This document shows positions 661-60,934 of a stretch of DNA of 64,000 nt, one piece after another. The stretch is from Isurus oxyrinchus (taxonomy: Eukaryota), in assembly GCA_026770705.1 (NCBI GenBank), contig JANJGN010000007.1:97464001-97528000 (forward strand). Reading direction: 5' to 3'. Position 1 is the first letter of the stretch; each line of letters opens with the position of its first letter. Both the position numbers and the translations under genes were made by a program. The notes under the pieces are model-generated. The model was given only the letters and a program-made list of their open reading frames with translations. It was not told where the DNA came from and did not search any database.

Positions 661-1829
661 CCGGAATGAAGTGCAATTTGATGTATGGAGACCATATTTT
701 GGAGCAGGTCAAGCCATAGTACGCGGCAAACATTCTGAGATTGATCTCCCAGGTGTGCACCCCATCTACTTCATCAATGCTATTAACAGCAGCCCTGTGG
801 ATATCAGAATTTTACTATCTGCTTTAGTTCAGTTGCACATGTGTAACACGTCACTCACTTCCCCTTTTCAATCACATTCTTGTTGTTCTTTCCGTCTATT
901 TGTTATCTAGTGCGCGCGTATCTGTGTGTGTGGTTTATTTCTGTCTCTTTCCATAGCTATGCTGTATTGCTCTTTGTTCACTGCATTATTACCCTCGGTT
1001 GCTGCCTCTTGAGCGAGACAGTTCAAACGCATCAACAGTGATGCTGCTGACCGACGAACGTCCTGCAGCAATGGTCAGTACCTCTGTGCGCGAGCGCTCC
1101 ACTGTTTCTGCTCCAATCCAATGCATTTGCACCACTGCTGAGAACTGGATATGCTATTTTTCCTACCAATTTCAATAACGTCAGGATAACCCATGCTATG
1201 CTCCAATAACCATTATTGTCTCACTTATTTAAACTATACATATTGATTTCTACACTCTTTATGTCCTCTTCACAATTTGCTTTCCCTACCTATCTTTGTA
1301 AATCCTATATTTGTATGGATACACAGGTCTGTTTTTTAACCTCTTTTGTTTCTAACTTCCCACAATTTACAAAAAGACTTAAGTTTGAGGAGATCAAGTA
1401 AGATGGTGTTTATGAGTTGCAATCGTATATGCATTTGCTCGTACGTACATAATACAAATACACACACGTAAAATGCATCTGCACATATATATATGGAAAA
1501 CAGAAAGCTTTCTTTCCCCGAAGGAAAATAGCAGGGGCAACACATACTAAAACAAAAGCAAAAACATCACAAATAGAATACAAACATAATAGTTACTTAA
1601 AACATAAACACACACATAAGGCGTGCACACTCCAAGCACAAGAAACATGCACATGAAATACACACATTGTTTCCTATGCACACATGAAACTCACATAAAC
1701 ATGCTAACTGCACAGACATGCAAAACTGAAGAATTAGTCTGGACATTCGTCCAGTGATGTTTCTTTATAGATCAGCTGGGTAAGTACAAATAACACAGAG
1801 ATACACACAAACGCACCTATATAATATGG

Positions 1830-3490
1830 AGCAGCACTGCCAACCAGTTACCAACAGCAGATTGAAAGAGACATGAGTCACCAGCAACATCATCACTCAG
1901 TCACCAATCGGATCACCTATCCATCAGTAACATGACCTCCAATAGAACCAAACCATCACAATAAACATTAACAAGCTACCAGCAGCAGCAGTCAGCCATC
2001 ATCGGCAGCACCAGGTCACCAGAATCATCAAGAAGGGAAAAGAAACAACACTGATCTGTCACAAGCATCAATCAGTCACCACCAGCCACATCCCAGTCAC
2101 TAGCAAAATCACCCCGTCTCCTGAATGAATATGCACTTAACGAAAAGATAGCAACTCACCAGCATTCTCAGATATTGACCAGCGCCACCATCACAGACCC
2201 ACCTGAAGTAGTGTCTACTTTCCAGCAGCACCATCCAGACACAAGCAACAGCGTCACCCAACCAACAGCACCAATACTTTAATCACCACCTGCTTCACAC
2301 TAGCACCATGAGCACCAGCAATCACCAGCAGCGCCGTTACCCAGTCATGGAAAATATTATCACCCATTCGCCATAAAAAAGCATCACCTGCTGCGCATCA
2401 GCTCATCACCTGATCACCAGCAATGGCATCAATGTGCCGCCAAGAAGAGCGCCACTCTATTGCCACCACCAATATAGACTTCCTTTGCCAGCAATATCAA
2501 CACAAATTACCTGGAGCACCTTCATCAGTTGCGAGAAACAGAAGAACCGTCATTGGAGAAAGATACAATAACTAGCACAAGTTGTCAATCAACAACAGTT
2601 TATTATCATGCAGTTACTATCAGCATTGACAAAATCGCAGCAGCTTCACACAGTCACCAGCATCATCACCCAGTCACCTAGTCACCAATGATAGTATTAT
2701 GCAGACACTACCAGAGACTCGACCAAGAGAATTGTAAACGAGGCACAATTGTCATCACCCTCATCAACATTGTCCAGCGACAAAATTATTCTCCACCGCC
2801 CAGTCATCAGTAAGAAATCTGAGTCGTAAAAGCAGCATCGAGTCTCCAGCAGAAACATATGGATATCAGCAGCATTAATCAAAAATCAGAAATGCCATCA
2901 ACCAGTGATCACCACCATCACGATTCACCAGCATAGATGCCTGGAAAAACTCAGCAGGTCTGGCAGCATCGGCGGAGAAGAAAAGAGTTGACGTTTCGAG
3001 TCCTCATGACCCTTCGACAGAACTAGTTCTGTCGAAGGGTCATGAGGACTCGAAACGTCAACTCTTTTCTTCTCCGCTGATGCTGCCAGACCTGCTGAGT
3101 TTTTCCAGGTAATTCTGTTTTTGTTTTGGATTTCCAGCATCCGCAGTTTTCTTTGTTTTTAGCATAGATGCCTAGTTACCAGCAACATAGCCATATCAAT
3201 AACTTGATATTCAACAGCACAATCAACCATTCCCCAGACAAAGCCACAGTCACCAACAATTTCTCAATCACTAGCAGCGCCATCTCAAGACAGAGTAAGC
3301 AGCAGCCAGTCACCGGCAGCATCACACAGCAAGCAATAACTTCACCCAGTCACTAGTAACATTATCACACAGCAGCGACCAAAGTTATCAGCTAGGTACC
3401 AGCAACAGAAGCATCAGTCACTAAACCATTATGAAATCCCCAGCAGCACTACGCCGTCACCAATTGCATTACCCAGTCAACATCAGCTGC
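1830..3490. repeat. Degenerate minisatellite (about 20-23 nt unit, consensus near CAGCAGCATCACCCAGTCAC), unit 1
   Basis: Recurrent CACCAGCA / CAGTCAC words with strong C+A bias on the + strand; paralogous to 28990-30475 and 54850-56005. Confidence 0.8.
2943..3160. mobile_element. Young Penelope-like terminal-repeat insertion forming a 170-bp palindrome, 13-bp TSD
   Basis: Arms 2940-3024 and 3025-3109 are reverse complements with one mismatch and no spacer. Flanked by AGCATAGATGCCT at 2930-2942 and 3161-3173. Sequence matches the termini of the element at 9085-13472. Confidence 0.85.
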
Positions 3491-3767
3491 CCACTGGGTA
3501 TAAGTTAAACAATTTTATCCTCAGATGATAACAAATTATGACTAACCTTTGAGAAACCTATGGTTTAATTTCGGCTAAAGGTTCCATCCGAGCATTTCTA
3601 TATATTTACTATGCTGAAGGTCAATCGCCTTAAAAGACCCAGACGGCTTCTTTCAGTTGATGTGCAACGGTCTCGACAATGAAGAACACACTGATAAACA
3701 ACGCCGTGGTGTGCAGTCTGCCAGGCAAATTTCCATTGAATATCCCTAGCATTCTGAGGCCAAACAA

Positions 3768-5712: not shown

Positions 5713-6043
5713 ATGTCTATATTCGATGTACTGAATTACCTCTTAGCGCTGGATTATTTACGCGGGTTAGATATCTGCACTTATCTGATAAATAGAAAGA
5801 GCAATTAGAACTGTGTAGGGATAATATCTCTTCAGCAATTATTGAAGATTATTTCATTTCCTTCCGTTATATTTCGCACATACTATTTCTTCACTTTTAA
5901 CCATCCCAATCATTTCCTCTGCCTGTAATCCTGCCTATGTTTATATCTATAAGCTACTGACGGGACCGCTCTCAGTGCTTCATATCCCGGGCCGTGTGAC
6001 TCCGGTGAAAGGTACAAACGTAAACATCATTTCCTGTGTGTCG
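5713..6043 (+). pseudogene. Copy 1a: frameshifted leader exon plus truncated 5' part of the V exon (5954-6043)
   Basis: ATGTCTATATTCGATGTACTGAATTACCTC aligns with the leader at 56630. 5954-6043 aligns with the first 30 codons of the V exon (RVTPVKGTNV), has a 2-nt deletion, and then jumps back into promoter sequence. Confidence 0.85.
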
Positions 6044-6303
6044 GAAATATTCACATGACGCGAAATTATCTCATGTTCTCTGGAACAACAATGAGATGTG
6101 ATTGGTTTCAACTTCCATTGCGTGTTCTCACCTTTGACGTAAAAATGAAACCAGTAAACCGAAGCTGGAGTTTCAACTGTAGCAATGGTGGACCATATTG
6201 CAGCACGCCCAATGCCCAATCTTCAATTTTTTCCATTCTCCTACCCTTCAGTTTTTCCAGCTGATTTGTAGCACGAATGACCAGTTAATCGGCTTTGAGC
6301 AGA

Positions 6304-6790
6304 ATGTATATATTCTGTGTTGAATTATCTCTCAGCGCTGGCATTATTTACACAGGTGTCTATATTAGACCTGTTCGATAAATGTTTACTGTTGATTGTA
6401 CATTTTCATTTTTTCGTTGTATTTCCTTCCTTTGAATCTTGCCGATCATTACCCTTACGGCAACCCTGTGTGTTTATTTCTGATATTTACTGACGGGAGC
6501 GCGCTCTCACTGATTCAGGTCCCTGATCGTGTGACTCAGGTGGAAGTTACAAATGTGTCCATCAATTTCTCAGGGTCGCTTTTGTTTCTCAACGCAATGC
6601 TGGATCTTTATTGGTGGCGAGAGGGCCAATACGCGACTTTGGATACGGCTGCAGACATAAGGAAAACAGTGATGTCTTCCAAACAAGGGTCTTACAAGTT
6701 CCACCTGCTGAATGTGAGTTCCTTATTGCAGCGTTCCAGAAGGGGCAGGAATGATTTTCAATGGTGGCGGGGCTAACCTAATGATACAAG
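6304..6790 (+). pseudogene. Copy 1b: leader exon (6304-6355) and VJ exon (6488-6790) pseudogene
   Basis: Leader MYIFCVELSLSAGIIYT with ACAG|GT donor. The V acceptor AG is mutated to AT, the first Cys is Phe, and a deletion removes the DSG motif and shifts frame; the donor AAG|GTGAGT is retained. Confidence 0.9.
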
Positions 6791-7650: not shown

Positions 7651-8649
7651 TATACACATCAATTACAAGTAAAAAGAGACATATTTTAATCCATATTTCT
7701 CTGTTTATCCATTAAGGAAAATGTGCGTTTGCCTCTCAATAGGGTGCTGCTGGGAATCACTTTATTCAATCCTCTCTTCACTGACATGCCGAGCTCCAAA
7801 GATTTCGCCAGACTCAGGTGCCCAATGTGCATTTTTTTGGTTGCCTGTTCAGTCAAATCCGGGAAACAACAATTAGATTGTCACTGACTGTTCGTAAGTT
7901 TATGCAAGAATTGCACAACGAGTTAAGGGGCACGGGGAGGCTGGGTGGGGGGGGGGGGGAGCTATAGGAAAGGAGAGGATCACACCAAACGGTACTTTTC
8001 TGCATGCTTAACGGAATAAGTGATGAGCATATTTGCTGAGAACAGATTTATTTATGCACATACACGTTAGGTGACCAATGAAAATCCGTTGACCTCCCTG
8101 ACGTGTTGCATTTGTACAATTAGAATTTGCGTGCAAAGCAACTCGATTCTCTTTGCATACATATATATCATTTGCAGTAGAGACGTCAATGCATTGACTA
8201 CCAACGCTAACGGGAGATTATAAGTGAATTTCTCTTGATTTGCAGTTGATCGTTTTATTTTCAGTGGGGCAGTAGAGTTATATTTACGGATCTTTTTATG
8301 TCTCCTACAGTGCTTAGATCTTTACAGTTGTGAAATGCGTTTTTCGAGCACTTGATCGTGCAGCATTTCCAAAAGAAAACCACAATTAAGCCCCAAACGT
8401 ACATCCCGTATTGGAATTGCCTGCTGTTCCAACTCAGCTTGAGGGTCGAGCAGGACCCCATTGTTTCTCATAGATACTGGTGCCAGTCAGCAATACTTAG
8501 TTCAAACAATAGAGCAAAGTGTGGATGGGAAGTTGGTGACAGAAGTCCTGGATCAAAAATAATTTACCAAAGGCCTGTATCCTCTTCAGGAAACGTGAAG
8601 ATGGCATTTTCAGCCAGGAGCCGGTGATTGTGTTTGGTGAATGTAACAT

Positions 8650-9084
8650 ACGAACACACGGAAATAAGAATTATGAGCAAGATTAAGCTCCTCGGCCTCT
8701 CGAGCATGCTCTACCATTCAATAGATTAATGGTTAATCATGTTATAACATCAGTTCCATATTCCTGACGACAGCCGATAACCTTTAACCCCCTTGTTTAT
8801 CAATAATCTATCTAGCTCTGCCTTAGACATATACAAGTTTCTGCTTCAGTGTCTTTTGTGAAAGAGAGTCCCAAACACTCATGACCCTCTGAGAGAAAAA
8901 CAATTCTCATGATCTCTGTTTTAAATGATAGACCTCTTATTGTTAAACAGTGAAGCCGGGTTCTAGATTTTCCCATAAGAGGAAAAAGTATCTACGCATC
9001 CACTCCATCAAGAACCTTCAGGATCTGAGCAGTTTCAACCAAGCTGTCTCTTACTCTTCTAAACTCAAGTGAATACAAGACGAG
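8650..9084 (-). mobile_element. CR1 LINE 3' part, interrupted by the Penelope element; continues at about 13475-13845
   Basis: Similar to the CR1 3' ends at 36140-36710 and 45165-45600. ORF 13471-13665 (LYKALVRAHLTYCAQYWS) is the continuation. Confidence 0.8.
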
Positions 9085-12000
9085 AACAAAAACAAAAATA
9101 CCTGTAAAACTCAGCAGGTCTGACAGCATCTGCGGCGAGGGATGCAGTTGACATTTGGAGTCCATATGACCCTTAATCAGAACTAAGACATATAGAAATG
9201 AGATGAAATATAAGCTGGTAGAGGGGGGTTGCTGGGACAGGTAGGGCTCGATAGGGGGCCAATGATAGGTGGAGGCAAAGAAGAGACTGCCAAAGATGTC
9301 ATAGACAAAAGGACAAAGCGGTGTTGACGGTGGGGATCTGATATTGTTGAACTCAACATTAAGTCCGGAAGACTGTAAAGTGCCTAGCCGGAAGATGAAG
9401 TGCCGTTCCTCCAGTTTATGTTGAGGTTCACTGGAACATTGTAAAATGCCAAGGATGGATATGTGGGCATGAGAGCAGCTTGGTTTGTTGAACTGGAATG
9501 CGACAGGGAGGTCTAGGTCATACTTGCAAACAGAGTGAAGGTGTTCTGCAAAGTGGTCACCTAGTCTGTGTTTGGTCTCTCCAATGTAGGGCAGCCCACA
9601 TTAGGAGTAGCGAATGCTGTAGACTAAGTTGAGGTAAGTGCCAGTGAAGTGCTGCTTCACTTGAAAGGAGTGTTCGGGATGTTGGACGGTGAGAAGGGGG
9701 GAAGTAAAGGGGCAGGTGTTGCAACTTCTACAGTTGCATAGGAAGGTGCCATGGGAGGGGGTTGACGTATATGGCGTGATGGAGGAGTGGACCAGGGTGT
9801 CCCAGAGGGAATGATCCCTGTGGAAAGCCGCCAGGGGGCATGAAGGGAAGATGTGTTTGATGGTGGCATCATGCTGGAGTTGGCAGAAATTGTGGAGGAT
9901 GATCCTTTGCATGTGGAGGCTGGTGGGGTGATAAGTGAGGACAAGGGGGACCCTATCATGGTTCAGAGAGGGAGAGGAAGTTGTGAGGGTGGATGCGCAG
10001 GAGATGAGCCGGAAATGGTTGAGGGCCCTGTCAACTACTGTAGGTGGAAAACCTCGGTTAAGGAAGAAGGAAGAGATATCAGATGACCTGTTTGGGAAAG
10101 TGCATCATCAGAACATATGTGATGGAGGCTAAGGAACTGAAAGAAAGTGATGGGTTCCTTACAGGAAGTGGGGTGTGAGCAGCTGTAGCTGAGTTAGCTG
10201 TGGGAGTTGGTAGGCTTGTAATGAATATTGGTGGGCAGTCTATCTCCAGAAATTGAGACTGAGAGGTCAAGGAAGGGAAGGGAAGTGTCAGTGATGTACC
10301 ACGTGAATATGATGGAGGGATAGAAATTGAGAGCAAAATTAATAAACTTTTCCAGATCCAGAACAGAGCATAAAGTGGCACTGAAGCAGTCATCGATGTA
10401 CCAGGGAAAGAGTTCTGGGAGGGGGCCTGAAGGGGACTGGAACTAGGAATGTTCCACATACCCCATAAAGAGAGAGGCATAACTGGGGCCCATGCGGGTA
10501 CCCATAGCCATACCTTTTATTTGGAGGAAGTGTGATGAGTTTATGGAGAAATTGTTCAGTGAGAGAATAAGTTCAGCCAGACAGAGGAGATTCGTGGTGG
10601 ATGGGGATTGTTTGGGCCTCTGTTCGAGGAAGAAGAGGAGATCCCTCAGACCATCCCAATGGGGGGTGGAGATGTAGCGTGATTAGATATCCATGGTGAA
10701 GAGGAGGCAGTTGGGGGGCAGGGAACTGGAAATTGTTGATATGATCTAGGGCGTGCAAGGAATCATGGATGTCGGTGGGAAGAGATTGACAAGGCGAGAG
10801 AGAATAGACTTAAGATAGCAAGAAATGAGTTCCATGGGGCAGGAACATTGCTGACATGATCAGTCTGCCTGGATAGTCCTGTTTGTGGATTTGGGGTAGG
10901 AAGTAGAAGTGGGCCGTCCAAAGTTGGGAGACTATGAGGATTGAAGCTGTGGAGGGAAGAGCTCCAGAGGTGATAAGGCAGTGACAGTCCTGGAAACAAT
11001 GAGTTGATGTTCAGTGGTGGGGTCATGGTCCAGAGGGAGGCAGAAGGAAGTGTCTGCATGTTGATGTTCAGCCTCTGCGAGGTAGAGGTCAGTGCACCAG
11101 ACAACAACAGCACCACCCTTATCAGCGGGTTTGATGACAAAGTTAGGGTTGGACCTGAGAGAAAGGAATGTGGCAAGTTCAGAAAGAGAAAGGTTAGAGT
11201 GGGTGAGAGGGGCATAGAACTTGGGATGACTGATGTCACGCCAACAGTTCTCAATGAAAAGATCAAGAGCAGGTAAAAATCCAGAGGGAGGAGACCAGGT
11301 GGAGGGCGAATATTGGAGGCAGTTAAAAGGATCCGTTGAATGGGGAGATGACTACTGCCCAAAGAATTGAAAACGAAAGCAGAAGGGATGGAAGAAGAGT
11401 TCAGCATCGTGCCAAGCATGAAATTCATTGAGGTGAGGGCGTAAGGGTGTGAAACTGTGTCATTTGCCGAGCACTAAACATTCAGCATCAGAGAGGGGAA
11501 GGCAGAGGGTATGTTGAATACACAGCCAGGGCTGGGATTGGAAGATTGGATGGGTACAGAGGGCCGGGCAGGGGTGCAGGGTCCTGGGTGGGCGTCGGTG
11601 TTGATGGTTTGTTAGAGCTTGCATTCCTTTGCATCTGAAAGGAAGAGACAAAGTTTCTTGTTGAGGTGTCAGATGAGACGAAGAATAAAATGAAACTGGG
11701 GGCCAGGTCATCTTAGAAATAGAGTGTGTCAGTGCCCTTATGGGGAGAGGTAGAGTGTGTTCATTAGGCGGCAGACGGCACTGCGTGTGGAACTCAGGAT
11801 GCAATGAGAAAAGCAGCCTGAGGAGCGTTGTATGTCACAGAGATTCTTGTAGTCCTGTGCTGGTTCGAAACATGAGGGGTGGAACTTCAACTGGAATCCA
11901 CATGTGGTAAGTTGGAGACGAAGAAATTCACTGAGGAATGAAATAGGGCTGTGAAAGCAAGTTCTAGTAAACACCTTGTCAAACACCAGGAGAGAAATGG

Positions 12001-13472
12001 AAAGCAATGAAGGTGAACACGGCAAAAGAGACAGGCAGAAATCCTGTCGGAGAGAAGGGCAATACATCTTCAACGTAGATATCCTTTGAGGAGAAGTGGC
12101 AGTCAATTAAACACTAAGATAAAAGCAAAATATTACTGGATGCTGGAAATCTAGAACTAAAACAAAAATACCTGGAAAAACTCAACAGGTTTGATAGGAT
12201 CTGTAGAGAGGGATACAGCTGACGTTTCAAGTCCGTATGACTCTTCATCAGAACTAATACATATAGCAATTAGATGGAATATAAGCTGGTAGAGGGTGGT
12301 GGGTGAGACAGCTCGATAAGGGGCCAGTGATAGGTGGAGGCCAAGAAGAGACTGCCAAATGTTTCATAGACAAAAGGACAAAGGGGTGTTGACGGTGGTG
12401 ATATTATCTAAAGAATGTGCTAATGGGGATATTAAGGGTAGAATCAGGATGAGCAAGTGACAGATGGCCTTAGTGGGGGCGGAGTGGGGGAACGTGATCA
12501 AAATGGGTGAAAAGGCGGAGATGAAACAATAGATCGAAATAAAAGTAAAAATAAGAGGGAAAAGAAAAACATATTTGGAAATAAATTATAAATTATTGGA
12601 AAAAAGGGGATCAGAAAGGGGGTGGGAATGGAGGAGACAGTTCATGATCTGAAATTGTTGAAGTCAATATTAAGTCTGGAAGACTGTATAGTGCCTAGTC
12701 GGAAGATGAGGTGCTGTTCCTTCAGTTTGCATTGAGCTTCACTGGATAATAGATCATATGCTTGCAGACCGGCCGAAGGTGTTCTGCAAAGCAATAACCC
12801 AGCCTGCATTTGGTCTCTTCAATGTAGAGGAGACCACATTGGGAGCAGCGAATGCAGTACACTAAATTGAGGGAAGTGCAACTGAAACACTGCTCCACTT
12901 GCAACGAGAGTTTGGGCCCTTGGGCAGTGAAGGGTGGGGAAGTAAATGTGTTACACCTTCTGCGGTTGCAAGGGAAGCTGCTATGGAAGGGGGTTGAGGT
13001 GTAGGCGGTGATGGAGGAGTGGACCAGAGTTTCTCAGAGGAAATGCTCCCTGCAGAATGCCGCCAGTGGGCTGTAGGGAAGAGGTGTTTGGTGGTAGCAT
13101 CATGCTGGAGTTGGGGGAAATGGCGGAGGATGATCCTTTGAACACGGAGGTTGGTGGAAGATAAGTGAGAACAAGGTGGACCCTATCATATTTCTGGGAG
13201 GGAGAGGAAGGTGTGAGGGTGGATGCGCGGGAGAATGGCCAGACACAATTGAGGGCCCTGTCAACCACCGTGTGTGGAAAACTTCGGTTAAAGAAGAAGG
13301 AAGACTTGTCAGATGAACTGTTTTGGAAGCTGGCATCATCAGAGCAGATGTAGCGGAGGTGAAGGAAGTAAGAGAATGGGTTGGAGTCCTTACAGGAAGC
13401 GGGGTGTGAGAAGTTGTTTTCGAGGTATCTGTGGGAGTCGGTAGGCTTGTACGGAATATTGCTTGACAGCCT
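9085..13472 (-). mobile_element. Penelope-like retroelement, partial tandem (near-complete decayed copy 9085-12117 plus 3' part of a second copy 12118-13472)
   Basis: Minus-strand motifs VIKPADKGGAVVV (about 11100-11138), GMAMGTRMGPSYASL (about 10470-10514), WYIDDCF (about 10383-10403) and a GIY-YIG-type NLVYCIRCSQCGLLYIEETKCRL (12722-12904). The terminal repeat occurs twice, at about 9085 and 12120. Confidence 0.92.
12217..12255 (-). ncRNA. Minimal type I hammerhead ribozyme in Penelope terminal repeat
   Basis: AGTT-CTGATGA-A-GAGTC-ATACG-GACTT-GAAAC-GTC-AGCT: intact CUGANGA and GAAA core, stem II, stem I and a GUC cleavage triplet. Confidence 0.75.
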
Positions 13473-14899
13473 ACAACTGTTCAGTGGACAAGACTAACCT
13501 GTCCAGCCCTTCCTCCAAAGCCAACCTGCCCGCCTCTGGTGCTTTTCCAGTAATTCTTCTCTGAACTGCTACGATCGTTTTTACATCCTTCCATAAATAA
13601 GAGGACCAATACTGTGCACAATATGTCAGATGTGCTCTTACCAATGCTTTGTACAACTGAAACATAACCTACCTTCGTTTGCATTCAATTCCCTTTGCAA
13701 TAATTGATAGCATTAGCTTTGCTAAATATTTGCTGTACCTGCGTAGCAATCTTTTTGCGATACATGCGCTAGAACAGTAAAAACCCTCTGATTCTCAGAG
13801 TTCTGCAATCTCGTACCATTTAGAAAACATGCTTACTTTTTATTTAATTACGGAGCCGCTGACTGGGGTGCAACCCGAGGTACTGCTAAAATAGGAATGG
13901 AAATACTGTCATGTGTTTTGGAAATTTAATGCATAAAATACGTTTTGAACCCAGAGATGAAATATTGTTGTAAAGCAGGCAGTGGCTGATCATTTTATTG
14001 TTTGCACAGAGCTACACAGTGTGGAGTAGGGGTGAGCTGTGGTCATTCGTGTGTAAGTTGGCTCCTGAGTAACAAGGATCAGCTTACAAAAGAAGACATT
14101 AAGATTTGAAAGTGGAGTGGACGTCGCTTGGACAGGATGGAGCTAAAGTGCATAATTGGCCGAGCATTATTAGTTTCAAATTGTAAATTCGCCGGTCTGA
14201 CGGAGATTAAAGTGTTTAAAAACACCTTCAGCAATTAATCAAATAAATTAAGAGCCAACACCGGGATTGTGGAGTCTTGGGTCGCAATATATTTGTAACG
14301 GAAATTCAGCGTAAACCTGAGGAATTTTCCATGATGGTCTGTTGACGATACATGACTAATTATTCACCTGGAAAGACTTTTCAGACTACTGCAAGCCTCA
14401 GATCTTTTCCGTTGACGGCGTTTGTTCTGTCCTATGTCTCTCGTTACAAGTGGAATGCAGATTCCAGTAACTGGAGAGTGATTGTTTATTTTTTATTTAA
14501 ATCATGTTGCTTTCATAGCCAGAAAAGGGAAACGGTTCGTTCCCTGGTCTGAGGGTGTTCCCAATGGGGACAATAGATTCGGATTGGACCTTATACATTT
14601 TCTTAACTCCTCTATTATCCCGTTGATGAGGCTAGAGTAACATTGCGCACACAGAGCCGCCGGACTCCACTAGTTGCGATTGCGAATTCAGAGTGTAACA
14701 TTGCCTGCATTTGGGTATTAAAATGTCAAGGAGAAGGTACAAGGTGAATTTACTTGATGATACCATGCCCAAATCCTGAAGATCAAAACGAGTGAAAGCC
14801 GGGTCCAGTGGAAGCGGTTTGAGCAGCATTACAACTGCAAGTAAGGTGGCATAACTTTAGAGTTAGTTGAAGAAACACAAAAGGCATGTTAGAGGAATA

Positions 14900-16400
14900 T
14901 TTATGCTGAGCGGATTGAGGAAGCCACTCACACAGCCTATCTATATCCGCCTGCAACCTCCTTACGCCCTCCTGATAACATTATTTCTTACCAATCTTTG
15001 TGTAATCTGCCAATTTAGCTACAATGGCCTCGCCCCCCTCTTGCACGGTATTGATGTAACTTGTAAAAAGTTGAGACCCAAGAGAGACCCCGGCGGGGCT
15101 CTACTCGTGTCATCATGCCAATAAGAAAAATACTCATTTATGCAATTTATCCTTTTCTGCCAGCCAGCCAATCTTCTACCCATGCTAATACCGCGTGCAC
15201 TAAGAGCTTTTATTTTCTGCAATAACGTTTGACCTGGCACCTTTAAAATCCCTTCTGGAAATCCAAGTACAGCATGTCTACAAGTTGCCCTTTATCCACA
15301 GCACATATTATTCCTTCAGAGAACTCCAATAAATTGGCTAAACATGATTTGGCTTTTACAAAATCATGCTGATTCATCCCAAATATCTTGAGTTGTTTTC
15401 GAAGGGCCCCGCTAGAACGTTTTAAATTATTAATTCTAACTGCTTCCACACGACAGGCATCAAACTAACTGGTCTATAGTTTTCTGCTTTCTGCCTCCAT
15501 CCCCTCCTGAATAGAGGTTATATTTGTTAATTTCCACTAATGGAACCTTTTCTGAATGCAGCAAATTTTGGAAAATTAGCACCAATGCATCAACTACCTC
15601 ATTAGCCACCTCTTTTAAGTTCCGAGGTTGAAGTCCATCTGGACCCAGACACTTGTCAGTCTCCAGCTCCATCAGTTTGCTCAGTACTTTTCCTTAAGTT
15701 TGATGCTGTCCTTAATTTATTTAGTGAACCACAGAAGATGGTCCTCCACTTACATTTGTTTCCTTATATTGGGAATTTACTTTCTCTGAGTATTCTGAAA
15801 TGTCCCCTTAAATGTCTGCCACTGCTTCTCTAGTGATCTGTTCCGCAGCCTAGTAAACCAGACACTTCAGTTAGCTCAGCCTTCACGCCCACATAGTTGC
15901 CTTCATTTAACTTTAAAATACATGCCTTAGTCTCACTCTTCTCCGTTTCAAAATGGATGAAAAATTCAAACACATTATGATCGCTGCTCCGAGCATTGCC
16001 TTTACTTTGATTTCATTAATTAATCCTGTCACATTACACAACACTAAAACTAATATAACCTGGTCTCTGGTTCGTTCCAAAACATGCTGGTCTAAGAAAA
16101 TGCCTCGAATGCATTCTATGAGCTTCTCATCGGGCCATTACTACCAATCTGATGTTTCCAGTTTATACAGTGATTAAAGTCACCCATGATTATGGCTGTC
16201 CATTTATCATACGCATCCAATATGTTTTTCTTGCATGCTTTGTCCAACATTTTGGTTACTATTATGGGGCTTGTAGACAACTCCCACTCGTGACATCTTT
16301 CCCCTACTATCCTCCATCTCCACTCAAACCGACTATACATCTTGATCTCCTGAACCAAGGTCATCTCCAACTGTTGCACCAACTATTGGTAGATTACGTT
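14900..16400 (-). mobile_element. CR1 LINE fragments (endonuclease to RT, internally deleted)
   Basis: ORFs containing IIMGDFN, GPDGLQPRNLKEVA, LYLDFQKGF and PPGSLLG. Confidence 0.85.
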
Positions 16401-18855: not shown

Positions 18856-18978
18856 GTAAGCTGGACCGTAATTTCCCCCATGGCCTCGGGTCTAGGTCAG
18901 CAGCAGGCGGGGTGATAATTTTAGTGATGATGCTGTTACTGGCACTTCTCAAACGATGCAAATTGGATAGACCTGATG
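18856..18978 (+). pseudogene. Transmembrane exon of copy 1
   Basis: Encodes KLDRNFPHGLGSRSAAGGVIILVMMLLLALLKRCKLDRPD: hydrophobic run, then basic stop-transfer KRCK, then phase-1 donor G|GTAAGA. Preceded by a polypyrimidine tract whose AG appears mutated to AT (by alignment with 39101-39107). Confidence 0.75.
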
Positions 18979-19320: not shown

Positions 19321-20477
19321 GTAAATTTAACACCAGTCTATATCAAGACAGAATATTCTGGAGGAACACAAGGATTCAGATAGTATCTGTGGAAGTGAAA
19401 GCCGAACCTAGATCTGGAAAATAACTCCCTTTCTTTTCTCCAAGGATAAAATCTGCCCTTTTGAGTACTGACAGTAGTTTATATTTTTATTTCACATTTT
19501 CAGCATTTGCGGGGAGTTTACTTTTGCTTATGACACGTGGTGTTCTGGTGTAAAATGGATACCATCGCAGCCATCAGTAGAACTGGATGTCACTTTTCCA
19601 TTGATGACCAGTCCATTCATTTTGTTCGAATATTGAGTATTTTTCGGCAAATACATTGCAAAGGATGAAGTTGATCATTGGTGTAATTTCACTCAGGATA
19701 TGCCCGGCCAGTTCGAGGATCAGGTCAGTTTCAGTTTATTATACTGAGAAATAGGCTGTTATTTCAATGTACTGAACACTTACACCATAGATATACTGGT
19801 ATTCCTGGAACATGAGAAGTATCTCGCTATTGATGGCGCAAATGGCAAATCAATTCTCAGTTCATGGAATCCTCAATTACCTCCTCTAATGTGAAATATG
19901 GTCAGTGACCCGTCAGGACAACAATGATACCGGAGTCCAGGCAATACTCCTGATCCCGCAGATATGGTTGCTGATGTTTGGCTGTTGTCAGTGACGGTTG
20001 GGGGGCTATTCAGCCGCATGAAGGAACAAAGCTAACTCGATTCTGTGATCACATTTATCCCCACGTATGAACTTTTCAGCGTAATCCCTGAACATTGACC
20101 GCGGCTGCTCACTGACAGGGATAACGCCCCTTCCCTGGCCTCAGTGCCTCTGTGAAAATAGATATCTGCTGAAATAGTCAAATTCAGAACTCGGATTTAC
20201 ATTAACTACTGGGTGGCGCATGCGCGAGTTTTTGGCCCACTCAGTTAGGGCGAGTTCCTGATAACACAGATTGTGATTGAATGTTCAGAAATATGAAACC
20301 AATTAGTAAACGGTTGTCTCCGATGTCCTTGTAAGAATATTGTCACTGGGACAATGTCATTTTCAGGTTTGATCTGCAGTCATTAAACCCACCCAATGTG
20401 TTTATTTCCGGTTGTTGTTTTTGTCTTCTATTGGTAATATAAAATATTGCTAATATTTCTCAAAAGTCTCCCCACAG

Positions 20478-20678
20478 ACCATACACGGAGGAGAGGAGGG
20501 TAGTCCGAATTCCGCTGCTCTCACCTTCAGAGAGCAGAAGAAAACTGGGAAAGCCAGAGGTGAAGAAGAGAGCACAGTCTATGCACAGGTACGGCCGGCA
20601 AACGTAACAGTCCATTGTAAACTGGGACGCTCTGACGCAGCTCTGATCTCAGTAATGTGCAGTAACAGACTGAAATAA
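20478..20678 (+). pseudogene. Terminal cytoplasmic exon of copy 1 with ITSM-like TVYAQV
   Basis: CCCACAG acceptor; open frame TIHGGEEGSPNSAALTFREQKKTGKARGEEESTVYAQVRPANVTVHCKLGRSDAALISVMCSNRLK*; motif at 20574-20591. Confidence 0.7.
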
Positions 20679-39107: not shown

Positions 39108-39223
39108 GTCGTACTTTCCCCTATCGCTGGTGTCTGGTTCTGCAGCGGGCGGATTAATGATTTCAGTAATGATGCTGTTGCTGGCAGTTCTTGTCAAGCG
39201 ATGCAAAATGGATAGACCTGATG
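39108..39223 (+). pseudogene. Transmembrane exon of copy 2
   Basis: CCCTTTTAG acceptor; encodes YFPLSLVSGSAAGGLMISVMMLLLAVLVKRCKMDRPD. The 5' end is frameshifted and the donor is removed by a 10-nt deletion between GATGG repeats relative to copy 1. Confidence 0.75.
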
Positions 39224-39893: not shown

Positions 39894-39937
39894 GCAGGGC
39901 GATTCCAGAGCTCATGACCAACCAGTTCGAGCAGCAG
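39894..39937 (+). pseudogene. Candidate 44-nt cytoplasmic mini-exon (phase 1 to 0), copy 2
   Basis: Reads GRAIPELMTNQFEQQ. The paralog at 19697-19723 ends CAG|GTCAGT. It would bridge the phase-1 TM exon to the phase-0 terminal exon. Confidence 0.3.
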
Positions 39938-40668
39938 TCAGTTTCAGGTTAATTTAATGAAAAATAGGCTGTTATTTCACTGTCCTGAACACTCACAGCA
40001 TAGTTATACTGGTTGTCCTGGGGCGTCAGAAATGCTCCTGCTCATATTGGAGCACACAGCAAAAAAATCTGAGTTCATGGTATCCTCAATATCCTCCGTA
40101 ATGTGAAGTATGCTCAGAGGCCCATCAGCACAACAATGATACCCGAATCCAGGCAACCCTCCAGCTCTCGCAGACACCGGCATTCTTGTTTCCGTTTAGT
40201 CAGTGCCGGTTAGGCGCCTACTCAACCATATTCAGCTCAATTCTGTGATCACCCGATACCCCCACCCATGAACTACTGAGCGGCATCTGCATGTTGACTG
40301 GGGCTGCTCACTGAGTGATACCGCTCCTGTCCAGGCCCCAAAGCCCCCGAAAAAAGTTAACTTCTAAAATAATCAAACTCCGAACTTGTTTGTGCGTTAA
40401 ATGTTGAGTAGCGCATGCGCCAGTTCTTGGCCTAATTGCTGATAACACAAATGATGACTGCATCTTCAGATAAATGAAGCCAATTGCGAATGAGATGTCT
40501 GCGATGTACTTGTAAGACTATTATCACAGGGACATTACCAACTACAGGCCTGACCTGCAGTAATTAAACTCAGCCAAAATGTTTATTTTTCGTTGCTTTG
40601 GTTCCCCTCTATCTTCGTTTGCTGATTTAATATATAGCAGCTAATATTTCTCCAAACTATCTCCACAG

Positions 40669-40821
40669 AGCAAGCATGGAGGAGAAGCGGGGAGTCCGAC
40701 TTCCCCTGCTCACCTTCAGAGAGCAGAGCAAAACAGAGATACCAAGGCGAGAGAAAAAAACACCTCCTATGCCCAGGTTCGGCCGATAAACAGAAGTCTA
40801 TTCCAAACAGGCCCGCTCTGA
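40669..40821 (+). pseudogene. Terminal cytoplasmic exon of copy 2 with ITSM-like TSYAQV
   Basis: CTCCACAG acceptor; SKHGGEAGSPTSPAHLQRAEQNRDTKAREKNTSYAQVRPINRSLFQTGPL*; motif at 40762-40779. Confidence 0.7.
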
Positions 40822-41168
40822 CACAACGTCTGATCTCAGTAATGTGCATTGACAGACTGAAATAATTAATGTGAGCAAAAGGTGCGAATTGTCCTTGTTT
40901 CTACAGACCAAGCACGGGACAAATGGTAAGCTAACTTATGGGTTTTTGGATTTCACCGATTTCCAGAATGGGCAAGGAGGAAACAGGGGAAAAGCGGAGT
41001 GGAGCATGCAGAGAACGATATAAGTAAACCAAACGGATAGACCCGGGTTCCCTGAGCATCACCAAAGTCCAGCACTGTTACAGTTACACCGGGGCTACTT
41101 TGTTGTAACCTGAATTCTACACTAACCGTGTATAATACACCGGCAATACATTGTGCTGTACTTGATTG

Positions 41169-44829: not shown

Positions 44830-45160
44830 ATGCGGGCAAGATCGCGTTAGATCGGTATTTGGAAAATGTCATTCCATTATTGAAAAAAGGGAGGGAGGCA
44901 GAAATCCCAGCACTACCGGCCTATTACTTAACATCTGCCATCGGGAAAATGTTATAAGCTATTAATGAAAAAGTAATAGCAGAGCACTCGGATCAACTCA
45001 AGACCATCAAGCAGAGTCAACGTGGGTTTTGTGAAAAAGAAATCGTGTATGAGGAACTTACTGGGGTCCCTTGAGGAAGTAGCATGATCTGTGGATAAAG
45101 GGGAATCGGAGGAAGTAATGTATTTTGATTTACTGAAGGGATTTGCTAAAGTGGCACATC
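44830..45160 (+). mobile_element. CR1 LINE RT segment, split by a later CR1; continues at 50049-51160
   Basis: NPSTTGLL-like NYRP region and ...GFAKVAH resume as QRLFAEIKAHG at about 50050. Confidence 0.75.
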
Positions 45161-48100
45161 ATACGAACATACTATCAAGGAGCAGGAGTAGGCTAGTCGG
45201 CCCTTCGAAACTACTTTGCCATTGAACAAGATCATGACTGATCTAATAGTCACCTGAAATCTGCATCGCACCTACCCTCGATAAGCTATCGACCCCCTTG
45301 CTTGCCCAAGACTCTATCCACCTTTGCGTTACAAATATTGAAAGACACTGCTTCCACCACATTTTCAGGAAAAGAGTTCCTAAGGCTCATGAACCTCTGA
45401 GTGAAAAAACGCCTCATTCCTGTTTTAAGTGAGTGACCGCTTATTTATAAAGAATGACACGTAGTTCTAGATTCTTGCACAAGAGGAAACATCCTCTCCA
45501 CATCTACCTTGACAAAATCCCTCAGGCCTATATATGTTTCAATCAGGTCGCCTCCTACTCTTCTAAACTCCTGCGGAAGCAAACCTAGTCTGTCGAAACT
45601 TTCTTCCTAAGACAACCCACCCATTCCAGGTTTAAGTCTGGTAAACCGTCTCTGAGCTGCTTCCAATGCATTTGCATCCTTCCTTAAATAAGGTGACCAA
45701 AATTCTAAACTGTATCCCAAATCTAGTCTCACTAGTGCTCGTAACAACTGAAAGATATGTTTCCTGCTTTTGAATTCAATTCCCCTCAAAATAAATGATA
45801 ACATTCTATTAGCGTTCCTAATTACTTGCTTTACTTGCATACTAGATTTCTGAAAATCATGCTCTAGGACAGCAAGGTCCCTCTGCACCTCAGAGCTCTG
45901 CTATCTCTCACCATTTAGATAATATGCCTCTCTTTTATTCTTTCAGCCAAAATGGAAAATTTCACATTTCCCCACATTATACTTCATCTGCCAGATCATT
46001 GCTCACTCGCCTAACCTGTCAATGTCTTCTTGTAGCCTCGTTGTTCCCTCTTCACAACTTACTTTGCTACATAACTTTGTGTCATCAGCGAATTTCGCAA
46101 CCATTCATTCATCTGAGTCTCATATATTAATTGTGAACAGTTGAGGTTTTAGCGCTGATCTGTGAAGCTCACCACTCGAGACATCTTGCCAAACTGAAAA
46201 AAACCCATTTTAGCCTACTCTCTATTTTCTGTTAGCTAGCCAATCTTCTATCCATGCCAATGTGCTACCCACTGTACCATAGATTTTATTTTCCGGAATA
46301 ACCTTTGCAGTGGCACTTCATCAAATACTTTCTGGAATTCTAAGTACAGAACATCCTCTGCTTCCCTTTGATCTAAAGCACATGTTGCTTCCTCAAATGA
46401 CTCCAATAAGTTGCATGAACACGATTGTCCTTTCACAAAAGCACGTTAACTCCGCTTGATGATCTTCAGCTGATTCGAGTGCCCTGCTATAACTTATTTA
46501 ATAATAGCTTGTAACATTTTCCCTAAGACAGATGTTAAATTAATTGGCCTCTAGATTCCTGCTTGCTGTCCCCCTCCATTTTTGCACAGTAGAAATACAT
46601 TTGAAATCTTCCAATCTGTTGGGGCGTTGCCCAAACGGAGGGATTTTGGAACATTTAAACCAATGCATTAACTATTAGACTAGCCACTTCTTTTAAGACC
46701 CTGGGATGAAGTCCATGAGGACCTGGCTCCTGTCATCCCGCTGCTCCAACAATTTACTCAGTACCACTCTCTTGTGGCTGTACTTTTCCTGACTTCCTTA
46801 TGCACTTCCATTTCCTGGTTTATAGCGGCTTCTAGGATGTTATTTGTATCCTCTATAGTGAAAACAGATGCAAACTACCCGTTCAATTCGTCTGCCATCT
46901 CCTTGTTTCCCATTATCAATTCTGCAGATACGCTTTCTATAGGACCAATGCTCACTTTGATAACTCGGTTCTTTGTAAAATATTCATAAAAGCTCTTACT
47001 ATATCTTCCAATATTTCTGGCTCGATTTCTCTAACACTCTAAACAACTCCTTCCCCCACCCCCTTTCCGTCACCCACGCCCCCCCACCCCCACCCCCACC
47101 CCGCCCCCCCCACCACAACCCCCGACCTCGTACCATTAGTATTTTAGTTATTATTTGCTGTTCTTTGTATTCTGTCCAATCTTCTGACCTGCCACTCTTC
47201 TTTGCACAATTATATGTTTTTCTTTGAAGCTTGATACTAACTTGAACTTTTCTAGTTAACCACGGATGGTGTGTCCGTCGCCTTGGAATCTTTCCTACAC
47301 GTTGGAAGGTATTTATTATGTGCATTCAGAAATAACAAATTAAATATTAGCCACCGCATCTTTATTGGCAGATCCTTAATGTAAATTTCCAATTCACTTG
47401 AAGCAGCTCAGCTTTATGGCCTCGCAATTGTCCTTATTTAAGGTTTAAAAACTTAGTCTCATACCCACTCCTCTCTTCATTAAATTGAATGTAAAATTCA
47501 AACATATTATAGTCGCTGCCAAACAGGAGGACATTAACTATGAGATCATTAATTTCTCCCACCTCATACCAGCATAGATCTAGAATAGCCTGCTCTCTGG
47601 TTGGCTCCAGAACATGTTGTTCTAACAAACTACCCCAAAAACATTCAACGTACTTCTCATCTAGGCGACTTTTGCCTGTCTGACTTTTCCACACTGTATG
47701 CAAGGTAAGCTCTCCCACGGTTATCACCGTGCTTTTCTAATTAGCTCCAATTATTTCTACCTTTATGATCAGCACTACAATGTGGTTACTGATTGTGGGC
47801 CTGTAAAAAACTCCAACAAGTGGATTTTTCCCTTTGCCATTTCGTATTTCTACACAAACCGTTTCCACATCCTGGTTTCCTGACCATGGGCCATCCCTCT
47901 CTATCTTCTAAAGCCACCATTAACTAACAGAGCCACGCCTTCACCTTTCTTGACGCGTCCTGTCCTCCCTAAACATCATGGAGCCGTCAATATTCAGGTC
48001 CCAATAAATGTCCTCCTGCAGCCATGTATCCATAGTGGCTATGAAATCATGATTATTTATTTCTACATGCACTCTCAGTTCGTCTGTTCTGTTTTCATTG

Positions 48101-50048
48101 CTACTTCCATTCAGATGCAGAGCTTTAAGTTTTATCATTGTTATCATTTTATAATCTCTAGTTTCATCTGTTAATTTACTGTTAGATTTGAACGCTCTCT
48201 CCCTTGATTGCATGGTCTGCTTGTCATTTCCCATAATGGTACCTTTTTCTAATGCGTTGTCTCTCCTTTTCGATTTACTACAACTTTTCAAATTTGATCG
48301 CTTGCCTGCACTTTTTAGTTTAAAACCCTCCCTACCTCCCAGTTATGTGGCTTACAAGAACAATTGTCACAGCATTGTTTGAGTGTAGACCGTCCCGATG
48401 GTACAGACCCCACGTGCCCCAATACTGGTACCAGGGCCCCAGGAACCAGAGCCCACTTCGAACACACCAGTCTTTAAGCCACGCATGCAACTCCCCAATC
48501 TGATTTGTGCTGTGACAATTGGCATGCCGTTGATGTAATAATACAGAGATTATGAACTTTCCAGTTCTGCTTCCTAATTTGGTGCCTACGTCCTCATACT
48601 GACAGTTCAGGTGCTCCTTCTTTGTCTTGCCTATGTCCTTGGTAGTTACATGGACCATGACGACTGGGTCTTCCACTCCCATTGCAAGTTCTTCTCCAGC
48701 CCCAAGTATATGTATCGAACCATGGCACCGGGCAGTCAACACAGCCTTCTGGACTTATGCCCTTTGCTGCAGAGAACGGTGTTAATCCGTCTGCTTATAC
48801 TGTCCTCTACTACCACTACTTTGTTTTTTTGCTCCCCCATTTGAATGGCTTCCTGCACCTCAGTTCCATGGTCGGTTAGAACATCCACCCTGCTGTCCCA
48901 ACTCTCATCCAAACAATATGCAAAAATCCCAAACCTGTTGGACCATTACAAAGGCTCAGACACTTCTGCTCCTACCCTCTGAATCCCTTTACCTGCCTCA
49001 TTCTCAGTCACACTCTCCTGTCCCCTACCACTGCCCAATTCAGAAGACTCTGTCTTAAGAGGTGTTACTGCCTCATGTTACAAACAATCCAGATAAGGTT
49101 CGCCCTCCCTAATGTGCCCCAGTGTCTGTAATTCAGCCTCTAGTTCATTGACCCAGAGCTGAAGCTGGTCAAACTTTAAACACTGACTGCAGACATGTTT
49201 GCACCGTATCAAATGGGCAACCAGGAACCCCATATGTTGCAGCTGCGATACATCACCCGTTCTGACTTCCTTAATATGTCTTAATTAACGATGTGAATAT
49301 TTTATTTAATTAAATATTCTGATTTTGTTTTTAGATATTGTATTAACCTTACCAGCAGTTGCCAAATTACTTTGAAATTTTTCAATAGAATAGACTTTAG
49401 CACTTACCAGATGCTCACCACATAACCAGTTTCTTCTCTTGTAGCAGAGTACAACTACTCCCTGAAAACTGAGAAAGATAGAAAGCAGAAAGAAAAAGAA
49501 CACCTGGTACCCTTCCTTCCCTAACGCCCTTAATTACCAAACTTCAAGCAGTATTGTAAGTCGCACTTCTTGCTATAAACCTGACTTACAGCATCTCGTT
49601 CCCCATATGCACCGAATCCCCACTTTGAACCAATATCCCAATTGCATTCATTCAGTTTCTGTCCCACTCAGGCCAAAGTCCCCAGCTGCTGATCATGCGC
49701 CTTTCAAGTTCCTTTCTTAACTTAATTTGTGATGAGTCATTCTCTAGCCTTGCTTCCTGCTCCAGCTATCAACACCTACTTTAGGCCATATTCTGGCAAA
49801 GGTGAGTCAGGTGATTGACAGTTAACTGCCACTAAGACAGGTGCTCATTTAACTCGGCTACTTATCTTAAAGACTGTTAATTCAGTGTTGTTAGATTTAG
49901 GTCAGAAACGGACTCTTAATCGAAAATTGAAATTGAAAAAGATTTATTAGTTGAATTCCCACTTTAAACCAAACTCCCAAATATATTCACCTGCTCTCTG
50001 TCTCACATAGATCAAATTCTTTCATCACTGATCCTGCACCTCTTACTG
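45161..50048 (-). mobile_element. Near full-length decayed CR1 LINE (esterase-type ORF1, endonuclease, RT)
   Basis: ORF 48332-48742 has SGNH/GDSL-like blocks (VVMVHVTTKDIG, RDGLHSN); 47941-48291 and 47434-47727 are APE-like (PTREQAILDL); 46248-46436 has LYLEFQKVFDEVP; 45607-45888 is the C-terminus. Confidence 0.9.
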
Positions 50049-51160
50049 ATCAAAGGTTATTTGCAGAAATAAAAGCTCATGGCATGGGGTTAACACATTG
50101 ACATGGACAGTAGATCATCGGCTAGCTAACAGGAATTAGAGTAGGTATAACTGAGCCTTTATCAGATTGGAAAGATATTTGTCACAGGGATCATTGCTAG
50201 CACCTCAACTGTTTACAATTTATATTAATGACTTGGATGAAGGGATGGATGGGATGGCTTCCAAATTTGCTGATGATACAAAGATAGGTAGGAAAGTAAG
50301 TTGTGAACAAGACATAAGGAGGCTACAAAAAGATAAGGAATGGTTAAGTGAGTGGGCAGAGATCTGACCATTCGACTATGATGTGAGAACATGTGGAATT
50401 GTCAATTTTGTCAGGGAGAATAAAAGAGAAGCATATTATCCAAATGGTGAGAGATTGCAGAGCTCTAAGATGCAGAGGATTCTGAGTGTCCCCGTGCATG
50501 AATCGCAAAAGTCTAGGACGCAGGTACAGCAAGCAATGAGGGAAGCTAATAAAATGTTATATAAAGCAAGAAGATTTGAATACAAAAGTAGGATGTTCTG
50601 CTTCAGTTAAACAGAGCACAGGTGAGACCACATTTGGAATACTGTGCACAGCATTGGTCGCCTTATTTAAGAAAGGATGTAAACGTTTTGGAAGCAGCTC
50701 CGAGTTTTACCATAATAATGGGCGGGTTGCCTTGTGAGGAAATGCATCCGCTGGAGTTTGGAAAAGGAAGAGGCGACTTGATTGAAACGTGTAAGATCCT
50801 GAGGGCTCTTGAGAGGATGGATGTGGAGAGGATGTTTCCTATTGTGATATAATCTAGAACCATGGGTCATTCTTTCAAAATAACGGGTCACCAATTTAAA
50901 ATGGAGATGAGGTGAAACGTTTTTTTGTTCTCCCAGAGTCGTGAGTCTTTGGAATTCTCTTCCTGAAAAGGTGTTGGAAGCTTGATCTTTTTTTAAGGCA
51001 GATGTGGATAGATTCTTGGTAAGTAGGGGGTAATAAATGATCGTGGTAGGCAGGAAGCAGACTTCAGGTGACTATCAGATCAACCATGATCTTATTAAGT
51101 GGCGAAGAAGGCTAGAACAGCCAAATGGCTTACCCCTACTCCTCGTTCGTATATTCGTTC
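50049..51160 (+). mobile_element. CR1 LINE RT 3' half
   Basis: SQGSLLAPQLFTIYINDL...SKFADDTKIG and RPHLEYCAQHWSPYL. Confidence 0.9.
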
Positions 51161-56005: not shown

Positions 56006-56465
56006 GGACATCAATTATAATTAGTTTTTTCAAGGAAATAACAAACGCTGACTAACTTTTGAGAACTGTGTAAGTTAATTAGGACTGAGATTGAATTCAA
56101 TAATTTCAATTTTTTGGATTCCTTAAGGTCTATCAATTTCACCGCTCCATATCTGCTAAATGTCTGGCGGATTTTTTTCAGTTCGGGTCCTAATAGCAAA
56201 GGACACACTATAAACCGCACCATGCTGACAATCGTCCGGCCGTTTTTCCACAAGCAATCCCAGCAGTCTGACCTCACGATTCAGGGGATAAAACCAGACA
56301 GTATTCACCGCGCCTGCAGGAACGTATTTGTGAACATTGAGTCATACTTTAATGTGGTTAAGGGCTGCGTCAATACGGAAACTCGCACGTGGTTCAAAAT
56401 GTTCCATGTTCTCTTGGCAAATAATGAGTTGTGGGTGATTTCAACTGTCACTGTGTTCTCACCTC

Positions 56466-56629: not shown

Positions 56630-56684
56630 ATGCCCCTATTCCATGTGTTAAATTACCTCTCAGCACTGGGCGTTATTTACACAG
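56630..56684 (+). CDS. Copy 3 exon 1: signal peptide (MPLFHVLNYLSALGVIYT)
   Basis: ATG, hydrophobic peptide and phase-1 donor ACAG|GT; splices in frame to the V exon; homologous leaders at 5713, 6304 and 31116. Confidence 0.85.
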
Positions 56685-56863: not shown

Positions 56864-57184
56864 TTACTGACGGGAACGCGCTCTCAGTGTTTCAGACCCC
56901 CGACCGTGTGACTCCGGTGAAAGGTACAAATGTGTCCATGACTTGCTCTGCGTCGCTTTTCGATCTCAAGGCAATGGTGGAAATTTATTGGTGGACTGAC
57001 CGCCAAGGAGCGGCTTTGGATCCGGCAGCAGACAAACGGAAAATAATAATGTCTTCCAAACAAGGAACTTCCCAGTTGCACCTGCTGGATGTGACTTTCC
57101 AAGACTCCGGAGTCTATTACTGCAGCGTTAAAGAAGGGGCAGGAAAGCTGTCCAGTGGCGATGGGACTGAGATTATTGTACACG
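56864..57184 (+). CDS. Copy 3 exon 2: Ig V-set domain with germline-joined J-like segment
   Basis: Acceptor TTTCTGACAG, donor G|GTGAGT, phase 1-1, open. VSMTC...IYWW...LHLLDVTFQDSGVYYC...SGDGTEIIVH has the canonical Cys, Trp, DxGxYxC and GxGT motifs. Confidence 0.95.
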
Positions 57185-60100: not shown

Positions 60101-60652
60101 ACCGGGCTGACTGCGGTTGAGCATTAGCAGTGCGGCTTGTAACGTGCTTATCCGCTGGGGACTTCATAACCGGAAAGGATCACAAGGGGCACTGAGGCAG
60201 TCAGATTAGGCGACACTCAGGCCCAAAGCGGTCATAGATGAGACACTCAATGAGATTTCGCTCTGCATCAGCAAGATATTCGCCCTGAAATGGGTCTCGG
60301 GAATTTAATTCATTCTTGAGGAATCAGGCACGGATCTCAGTAAAGGCACAATGTTGGGATGACGAGGTTTATTGATATTTGTTTGTCCTGTCTAACATTG
60401 TATTCTGAATATCTGAACTGTAGCGAAACACCTGCAGTGAGGGTTGAGACACCATACTGGTGGGTTCATGATTTTATTTCAGTATCACAGATATCAGGCC
60501 TTCCCTCGCCATGCTGGCTGAAGACATGATTAAAAACACATTGCATTTGCTGTTTCAAATATTCTCCCTCCTAGGCAGCCATTCTGTCATATGTGTTTCG
60601 AATGTAGAGCACGAATAACAATTTTAACTCATTCCCTTTAACTCATTCACAG

Positions 60653-60934
60653 TGCCTCCAACACCTGTGAAGATTATCCTCCTGTCCTCTCCGTCCCTCA
60701 CACTCCTCTGCATAACAGTTGGCTTCTTCCCAGGAGAGTTTAACCTCAGTTGGTACAAAGATGAAAACGAAATTACGTCGGTAGCAAACACAACGAAAAG
60801 AGAGAACGAGGAGGGATTATATCAAGTTTCCAGCTCCCTTAACCCCGTGGAGAGTTGGGCGGTTTATACCTGTCAGGTTTCTCATGTCTCCCTCGGGGCC
60901 CCAGTCAATGACAGCTACACAGTTCGGGATGCAG
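60653..60934 (+). CDS. Copy 3 exon 3: Ig C1-set domain
   Basis: Acceptor TTCACAG, donor CAG|GTAAGG, phase 1-1, open. TLLCITVGFFP...LSWYKD...GLYQVSSSL...YTCQVSH are C1-set hallmarks (CxxxGFxP, YxCxVxH). Confidence 0.95.

Follow-up and report, generated by a model that had tools for sequence, protein, structure and literature searches.

A likely inhibitory VJ-C1 receptor gene and two pseudogenes in a cartilaginous-fish receptor cluster

This locus raises the question of what kind of genes its tandem units encode and how quickly such units are gained and lost. The window (the whole stretch of 64,000 nucleotides analyzed here) consists of three colinear units on the + strand, which share 64-73% identity over non-repeat DNA and form colinear blocks at offsets of ~19-20, 25, and 50 kb in a self-alignment. 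The same unit order is obtained by tblastn with P0002, a relative from the horn shark, which maps back with leader, V, transmembrane (TM), and tail exons to copies 1 and 2 and with leader, V, and C1 exons to copy 3. Within the window, a C1 exon is found in copy 3 only and is missing from copies 1 and 2. Self-alignment and mapping thus agree on the three colinear units proposed in the preliminary description. The 25-kb period claimed there is a local feature: it matches the spacing inside the window, where the VJ exons start at 6487 (copy 1), 31303 (copy 2), and 56864 (copy 3) and lie 24,816 (copies 1-2) and 25,561 (copies 2-3) nucleotides apart, but not the neighboring V-to-V gaps of 21, 40, and 73 kb. 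As set out below, the window very probably comprises an intact gene plus two pseudogenes from a cartilaginous-fish family of non-rearranging VJ-C1 surface receptors, and copy 3 likely is an inhibitory receptor whose counterparts are the predicted activating members of its cluster.

Copy 3 carries the following features:
56630..56684, + strand: leader exon, intact
56864..57184, + strand: single-exon VJ domain, intact (Pfam V-set, GxGT J motif, no recombination signal sequence [RSS])
60653..60934, + strand: C1-set exon, intact (C1-set E 3e-14)
68167-70261 in extended coordinates, beyond the window, + strand: TM and three tail exons; the gene ends 6 kb past the window

The gene is composed of seven exons with canonical GT-AG splice sites and 362 codons, in the order leader, VJ, C1, neutral TM, and tail, and its tail contains two ITIMs (LTYAYL and VEYAEL) that are 23 residues apart. 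No RSS was detected near any of the three V exons of the window. A weak search among database proteins returned no ortholog of copy 3, and the structure model of the two Ig domains of P0002 is confident (mean pLDDT 77).

Searching with the V exon of copy 3 retrieved P0002 (57% V identity), and 39 relatives were collected, all of which are named as sharks, rays, or chimaera; ten sampled lower-ranked matches were frog, lizard, turtle, and coelacanth proteins with 28-34% identity. RefSeq models of cartilaginous fish labeled SIRP-alpha-like, tapasin-related-like, and NCR3LG1-like (P0002, P0007, P0012) belong to the same family, with a leader-VJ-C1-TM-tail organization; within a species, several of them lie on a single long contig. 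Their labels are automatic and inconsistent. The window genes fit this chondrichthyan VJ-C1 family in their single-exon VJ with GxGT and in their tree grouping, and copy 3 also in its one C1-set domain, TM, and ITIM tail. Most relatives have one C1 domain, and a few have a motif count of two. RefSeq models already cover the family, and supplements of genome papers may list its genes; in the main texts of the full-text literature, with most subscription papers outside the search, no paper describing the family was found.

Twin ITIMs recruit SHP-1/2. In copy 3, ligand binding by the V domain would lead to phosphorylation of the ITIMs and subsequently to SHP-1/2 recruitment. The relatives include both multi-ITIM and Arg-TM forms, distributed over sharks, rays, and chimaera, and the Arg-TM members would signal via an adaptor of the FcR-gamma/zeta type, a family for which three TM matches are present in the genome. 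Both SHP recruitment and association with ITAM adaptors are predicted from motifs. Activating TMs of the subfamily (P0011, P0024, P0026, and unit 4 of the cluster) start with NxxR, and more distant ones have Arg alone; among the nine activating-type TMs from the database, three match NxxR, four have Arg without Asn, and two fall outside the search pattern. NxxR is, according to PMC2413239, the TM motif of FcR-gamma-associated receptors. Inhibitory and charged-TM members with related ectodomains are found clustered together, as in paired receptors, to judge by their predicted domains and tails.

The preliminary description had expected the cluster to extend beyond the window and to include activating paralogs. 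In the genome of 4.98 Gb, all 47 V matches are located on contig C7 (at 96.4-97.6 Mb, at 108.7-110.0 Mb, and one at 114.8 Mb), and a census counted 52 V loci on this contig. This census was automatic, left splice sites unchecked, and was confined to the window and 1.26 Mb of targeted stretches rather than extending to the whole cluster. Intact V and C1 exons were scored at 21 of the 52 V loci, comprising 15 with a neutral TM, 4 with an Arg TM, and 2 for which no TM was found. The four Arg-TM members, of which the one at C7:96807577 is an example, have a short tail and are predicted to be of activating type, as had been proposed. The other 31 V loci were scored as broken or incomplete, and 15 C1 exons had no V within 7 kb. 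Together with the intact copy 3 and the activating-type paralogs, these losses bear out the idea of an innate-type receptor cluster under birth-and-death.

Several neighbors illustrate the state of these genes. The last exon of unit A (C7:97386254) is interrupted by a stop directly behind its first ITIM. The C1 of this unit shares 97% identity with a protein of the white shark, in which the ortholog P0010 reads on past the position of that stop. Unit C (C7:97459055) is interrupted in the same way, and units A and C may be one-ITIM receptors or recent pseudogenes. In unit B, no V was found and the C1 is broken; unit 4 has a V, a broken C1, and an Arg TM with a stop. The remnant unit next to the window units, located after copy 3, retains a decayed activating-type TM. 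It also bears a young LTR-like element (C7:97546226-97550122) whose 580-bp direct repeats are 99.3% identical.

No further family exons were found in the 250 kb downstream, where 5 of the 80 ORFs scanned, out of 764 candidates, had Pfam matches. The first gene encountered there, at 97.67 Mb, belongs to the OSGIN family, and an amino acid transporter follows at 97.77-97.80 Mb. The cluster hence adjoins OSGIN- and SLC38-type genes, with the last OSGIN family exon (L125:6334-7380) and the transporter exons (L135:4052-4306, L138:4302-4667) marking its downstream edge. OSGIN1 and SLC38A8 are neighbors on human 16q23. As for other synteny markers, C7 carries COG8 and GPI, which are separated from the window by 55-82 Mb, but no PGK or glypican genes; a supposed link between COG8 and NITRs was not borne out by the literature on NITR synteny. 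Elsewhere in the genome, about two dozen near-identical C1-set exons, 50-150 kb apart, are found at C16:85.8-88.5 Mb and probably represent an immunoglobulin minicluster array.

Which known receptor system do these genes belong to? One answer would be true SIRP orthology, with copy 3 sensing CD47 as a 'don't eat me' receptor. Among the matches of the family profile that are not of immunoglobulin type, SIRP-alpha (2wng) ranks first (E 1e-32), many RefSeq labels read SIRP-alpha-like, and the likeness extends to germline VJ and C1-set domains, a paired ITIM tail, and the coexistence of inhibitory and activating members. SIRP ectodomains are, however, V-C1-C1, whereas copy 3 has one C1, and activating SIRPs have a Lys in the middle of the TM in contrast to the N-terminal Arg observed here. 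Moreover, the IgA heavy chain and UrIg2 outscore SIRP-alpha with the family profile, and SIRP-like proteins of coelacanth and lizard score no better than other VJ-C1 proteins. The human SIRP genes are flanked by a SEP and a syntaphilin gene (NSFL1C and SNPH), and matches to these markers were found on C5 and C12 only and not on C7. We consider SIRP orthology unlikely on this balance.

A second candidate are the NITRs of ray-finned fish, which are also clustered VJ-exon receptors that are mostly inhibitory and evolve by birth-and-death (PMC2442602). The second domain is C1-set in the family described here (E 3e-14) but I-type in NITRs. NITR synteny differs between fish groups; of its markers, men1 (teleost) and runx1 (holostean) were searched, yielding menin on C37 and Runt genes on C6, C18, and C21, with none on C7. 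The ectodomains of LILR, PIR, and NKp46 and of Xenopus XFL are of C2 type, unlike the antigen-receptor-like VJ-C1 ectodomain of the present family. With these receptors the family shares the NxxR-type activating TM and ITIM-bearing partners (PMC2413239).

UrIg, UrIg2, PRARP, and NKp30 resemble the family in their single-exon, non-rearranging VJ, and UrIg2 is a top PDB match both for the C1 exon and for the family profile. UrIg has three C1 domains and is MHC-linked, and UrIg2 has nine and lies within an antigen-receptor complex (PMC12227049), while NKp30 and PRARP have been described as MHC genes (PMC10751288). Here, 31 of the 33 MHC class I matches are on C21 and the other two on C16, with none on C7. 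One of the C21 loci (C21:66132994-66134184) has class I alpha1 and alpha2 matches in one open frame of 845 codons and is separated from the remaining class I genes of that contig by at least ~27 Mb. The fold search returned only antibody light chains with a low TM-score and did not discriminate, and when single exons were compared with PDB sequences, the matches were generic Ig domains. Membership in the SIRP, NITR, and MHC-linked VJ groups thus fails on the number or type of the second domains and because the marker genes lie off C7. By analogy, the family appears to work like the SIRP, LILR, and NITR paired receptors, with membership in none of them shown.

In contrast to copy 3, copies 1 and 2 are disabled. 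The features of copy 1 are:
5713..6043, + strand: copy 1a, a partial duplicate with leader exon and first third of the V exon (pseudo-exons), from alignment
6303..6354, + strand: leader exon, net 3 bases shorter than that of copy 3
6487..6790, + strand: VJ exon, broken (acceptor AG>AT, first Cys lost, 17-bp deletion)
14923..14932, + strand: deletion junction; compared with copy 3, ~5.2 kb are lost here, C1 among them
18856..18978, + strand: neutral TM exon, acceptor AG>AT
19688..20876, + strand: tail exons, the first without acceptor; 20478-20588 and 20727-20876 open, with Tyr motifs

Those of copy 2 are:
31116..31169, + strand: leader exon with 1-bp deletion
31303..31623, + strand: VJ exon, broken (Cys>Arg, TGA, TAA; lesions identical in organism B, a related shark)
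35113..35115, + strand: deletion junction; compared with copy 3, ~4.5 kb are lost here, C1 among them
39108..39220, + strand: TM exon, frameshifted, donor deleted
39894..41055, + strand: tail exons, frameshifted

The lesions previously listed for both copies were all recovered in pairwise alignments, which revealed further ones. In copy 1, AG>AT changes are present at the V acceptor (6485-6486) and the TM acceptor (18854-18855), and a 23-bp deletion spanning the first tail acceptor accompanies the 17-bp deletion in V. In copy 2, the Cys>Arg change is at 31383-31385, TGA at 31392-31394, and TAA at 31482-31484; a 10-bp deletion removed the TM donor, and 1-2-bp frameshifts affect leader, TM, and tail. 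The leaders of both copies have lost 1 bp in the same G run, either by shared descent or by recurrent slippage. The C1 losses, on the other hand, are two events because both deletion ends differ between the copies.

Two independent C1 deletions could also mean that copies 1 and 2 were once functional V-only receptors and that loss of C1 was selected. This would agree with V-TM-tail models without C1 in horn shark, catshark, and manta ray (P0016, P0029, P0033) and with the dN/dS of ~0.5 between the tails of copies 1 and 3. Against it, other dead units nearby have lost V or V and C1, large deletions are common here, and V dN/dS among the three window copies is 1.0-1.4, a value that fits long neutral drift. 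Selection for a V-only stage is therefore improbable in our judgment, and the simpler course would be that copies 1 and 2 died, each losing its C1 separately.

The units are, as their sequences indicate, mosaics, with the 3' half of copy 1 being sister to that of copy 3. TM, tail, and downstream DNA of copy 1 are ~80% identical to those of copy 3, identity between the two climbs from ~69% to 79-89% across the junction at 14923-14932, and their distance is 0.38 in the V intron versus 0.16-0.19 in the 3' half. Copies 1 and 3 group in the tail tree with support of 100/99 and the alternatives rejected (p-AU 0.004), whereas the 5' tree weakly prefers copies 2 and 3 (81/87), with copies 1 and 3 not rejected (p-AU 0.11). 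The 3' block of copies 1 and 3 continues as copy 2 upstream versus the remnant unit, at an offset of 50 kb. The simplest reading of this pattern would be a later unequal crossover over ~50 kb (two units) that joined the V-C1 of copy 3 to a duplicate of the copy 1 TM and inhibitory tail, most of the second block having been deleted thereafter.

Exchange may also occur on a smaller scale. The V exons of units A and 4, which are 185 kb apart, are identical at 293/318 positions (92%), compared with 122/164, 179/251, and 208/270 (71-77%) in flanks and C1. Such V-limited identity is the pattern expected of gene conversion between inhibitory and activating genes, and V exons may thus occasionally be converted between these paralogs. 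In trees, the Arg-TM proteins of sevengill, manta, and bamboo shark sit with neutral-TM proteins of the same genus.

It had also been claimed that the window copies turn over rapidly, and this part does not stand. Most unit pairs have non-coding K2P distances of 0.26-0.38, with a single block at 0.24; lower values of 0.16-0.19 separate the 3' parts of copies 1 and 3, the upstream region of copy 2 and the remnant, and units B and C. Organism B, which was compared over copy 2, differs by ~3% (133 of ~4,230 bases on one contig). Its Cys>Arg codon and both stops in copy 2 are unchanged in four of four runs from four studies, which show no indels over 31050-31700; each run yields copy 2 as one contig with the same 14 differences. 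No large insertion is seen in the organism B contigs, which span most of the V-TM interval of copy 2 and are briefly interrupted at repeats. In V trees, catshark P0007 and bamboo shark P0012 join copies 1, 2, and 3 in a clade with 100/97 support, the inner order of which is loose. A clade of the three window copies only is not rejected (p-AU 0.37), so the copies may have arisen before or after the shark orders separated.

A young, fast-cycling locus with KIR-style copy-number variation might be suspected from the share of broken or incomplete V loci, from a few close duplicate pairs elsewhere in the cluster (V dS 0.03-0.11), and from the unit A tail stop where P0010 reads on. Yet the window units are 16-38% diverged, copy 2 with its lesions is carried as a single contig in every organism B run, and the V clade takes in other shark orders, which makes fast cycling unlikely as well. 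Unit divergence, the lesions found in organism B, and the clade with other sharks instead point to birth-and-death that is real but slow here, and the tandem duplications that made the three units would be ~10 times older than the organism B split.

Approximately 33% of the window is repeat-like. The features outside the exons are:
8646..13844, - strand: retroelement insertions specific to copy 1 (~83% to other loci), which we take from their motifs to be of Penelope/LINE type
26497..27977, strand not assigned: old transposable element (TE) relic common to copy 3 upstream (52843-53622), from self-alignment and repeat comparison
44864..51158, strand not assigned: unit-specific LINE-type insertions between copies 2 and 3

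Similarity between the units that is solely TE-derived has next to no chance of being true despite this repeat content, as exons align in order between the units and the colinear blocks (54% of the window) lie mostly outside repeats, and such an origin is ruled out by the exon alignments. Among the 18 repeat-like segments, four are TE relics inside colinear blocks (66-73% to other loci), another corresponds to the C1 exon, and a further segment (80%) has 36% of its length within such blocks, while the best-conserved ones (99%, 90%, and 83%) are outside or almost outside. The relics shared between units are the most decayed and the best-conserved ones are unit-specific, broadly in line with the preliminary description. 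In each of the three units, a decayed CAG/CAC-rich minisatellite with a period of ~20-23 precedes the leader exon (1800-3555, 29000-30534, and 54850-56065). At 2940-3109, there is a near-perfect inverted repeat of 170 bp, in which the end of a young repeat occurs twice, head to head.

A wider reading, which we put forward tentatively and hold to be possible rather than probable, is that the cluster is a cartilaginous-fish counterpart of KIR/LILR with ~50 genes. Its members would be unnamed self/non-self sensors that combine a VJ-C1 ectodomain with LILR-type signaling and read MHC or another polymorphic self ligand, at an OSGIN/SLC38 locus apart from SIRP, NITR, and MHC, and new receptors would arise by swapping ectodomains between braking and activating tails. 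The window copies are ordinary products of birth-and-death, to which they add dated slow turnover, ectodomain-tail shuffling, and V-limited conversion. For the debate on the origin of antigen receptors, the family provides a further case of non-rearranging VJ-C1 genes, and one with many members. A large and variable family of paired receptors would indicate how early innate immune cells acquired their inhibitory/activating logic, and its members are testable candidates for self-recognition in sharks.
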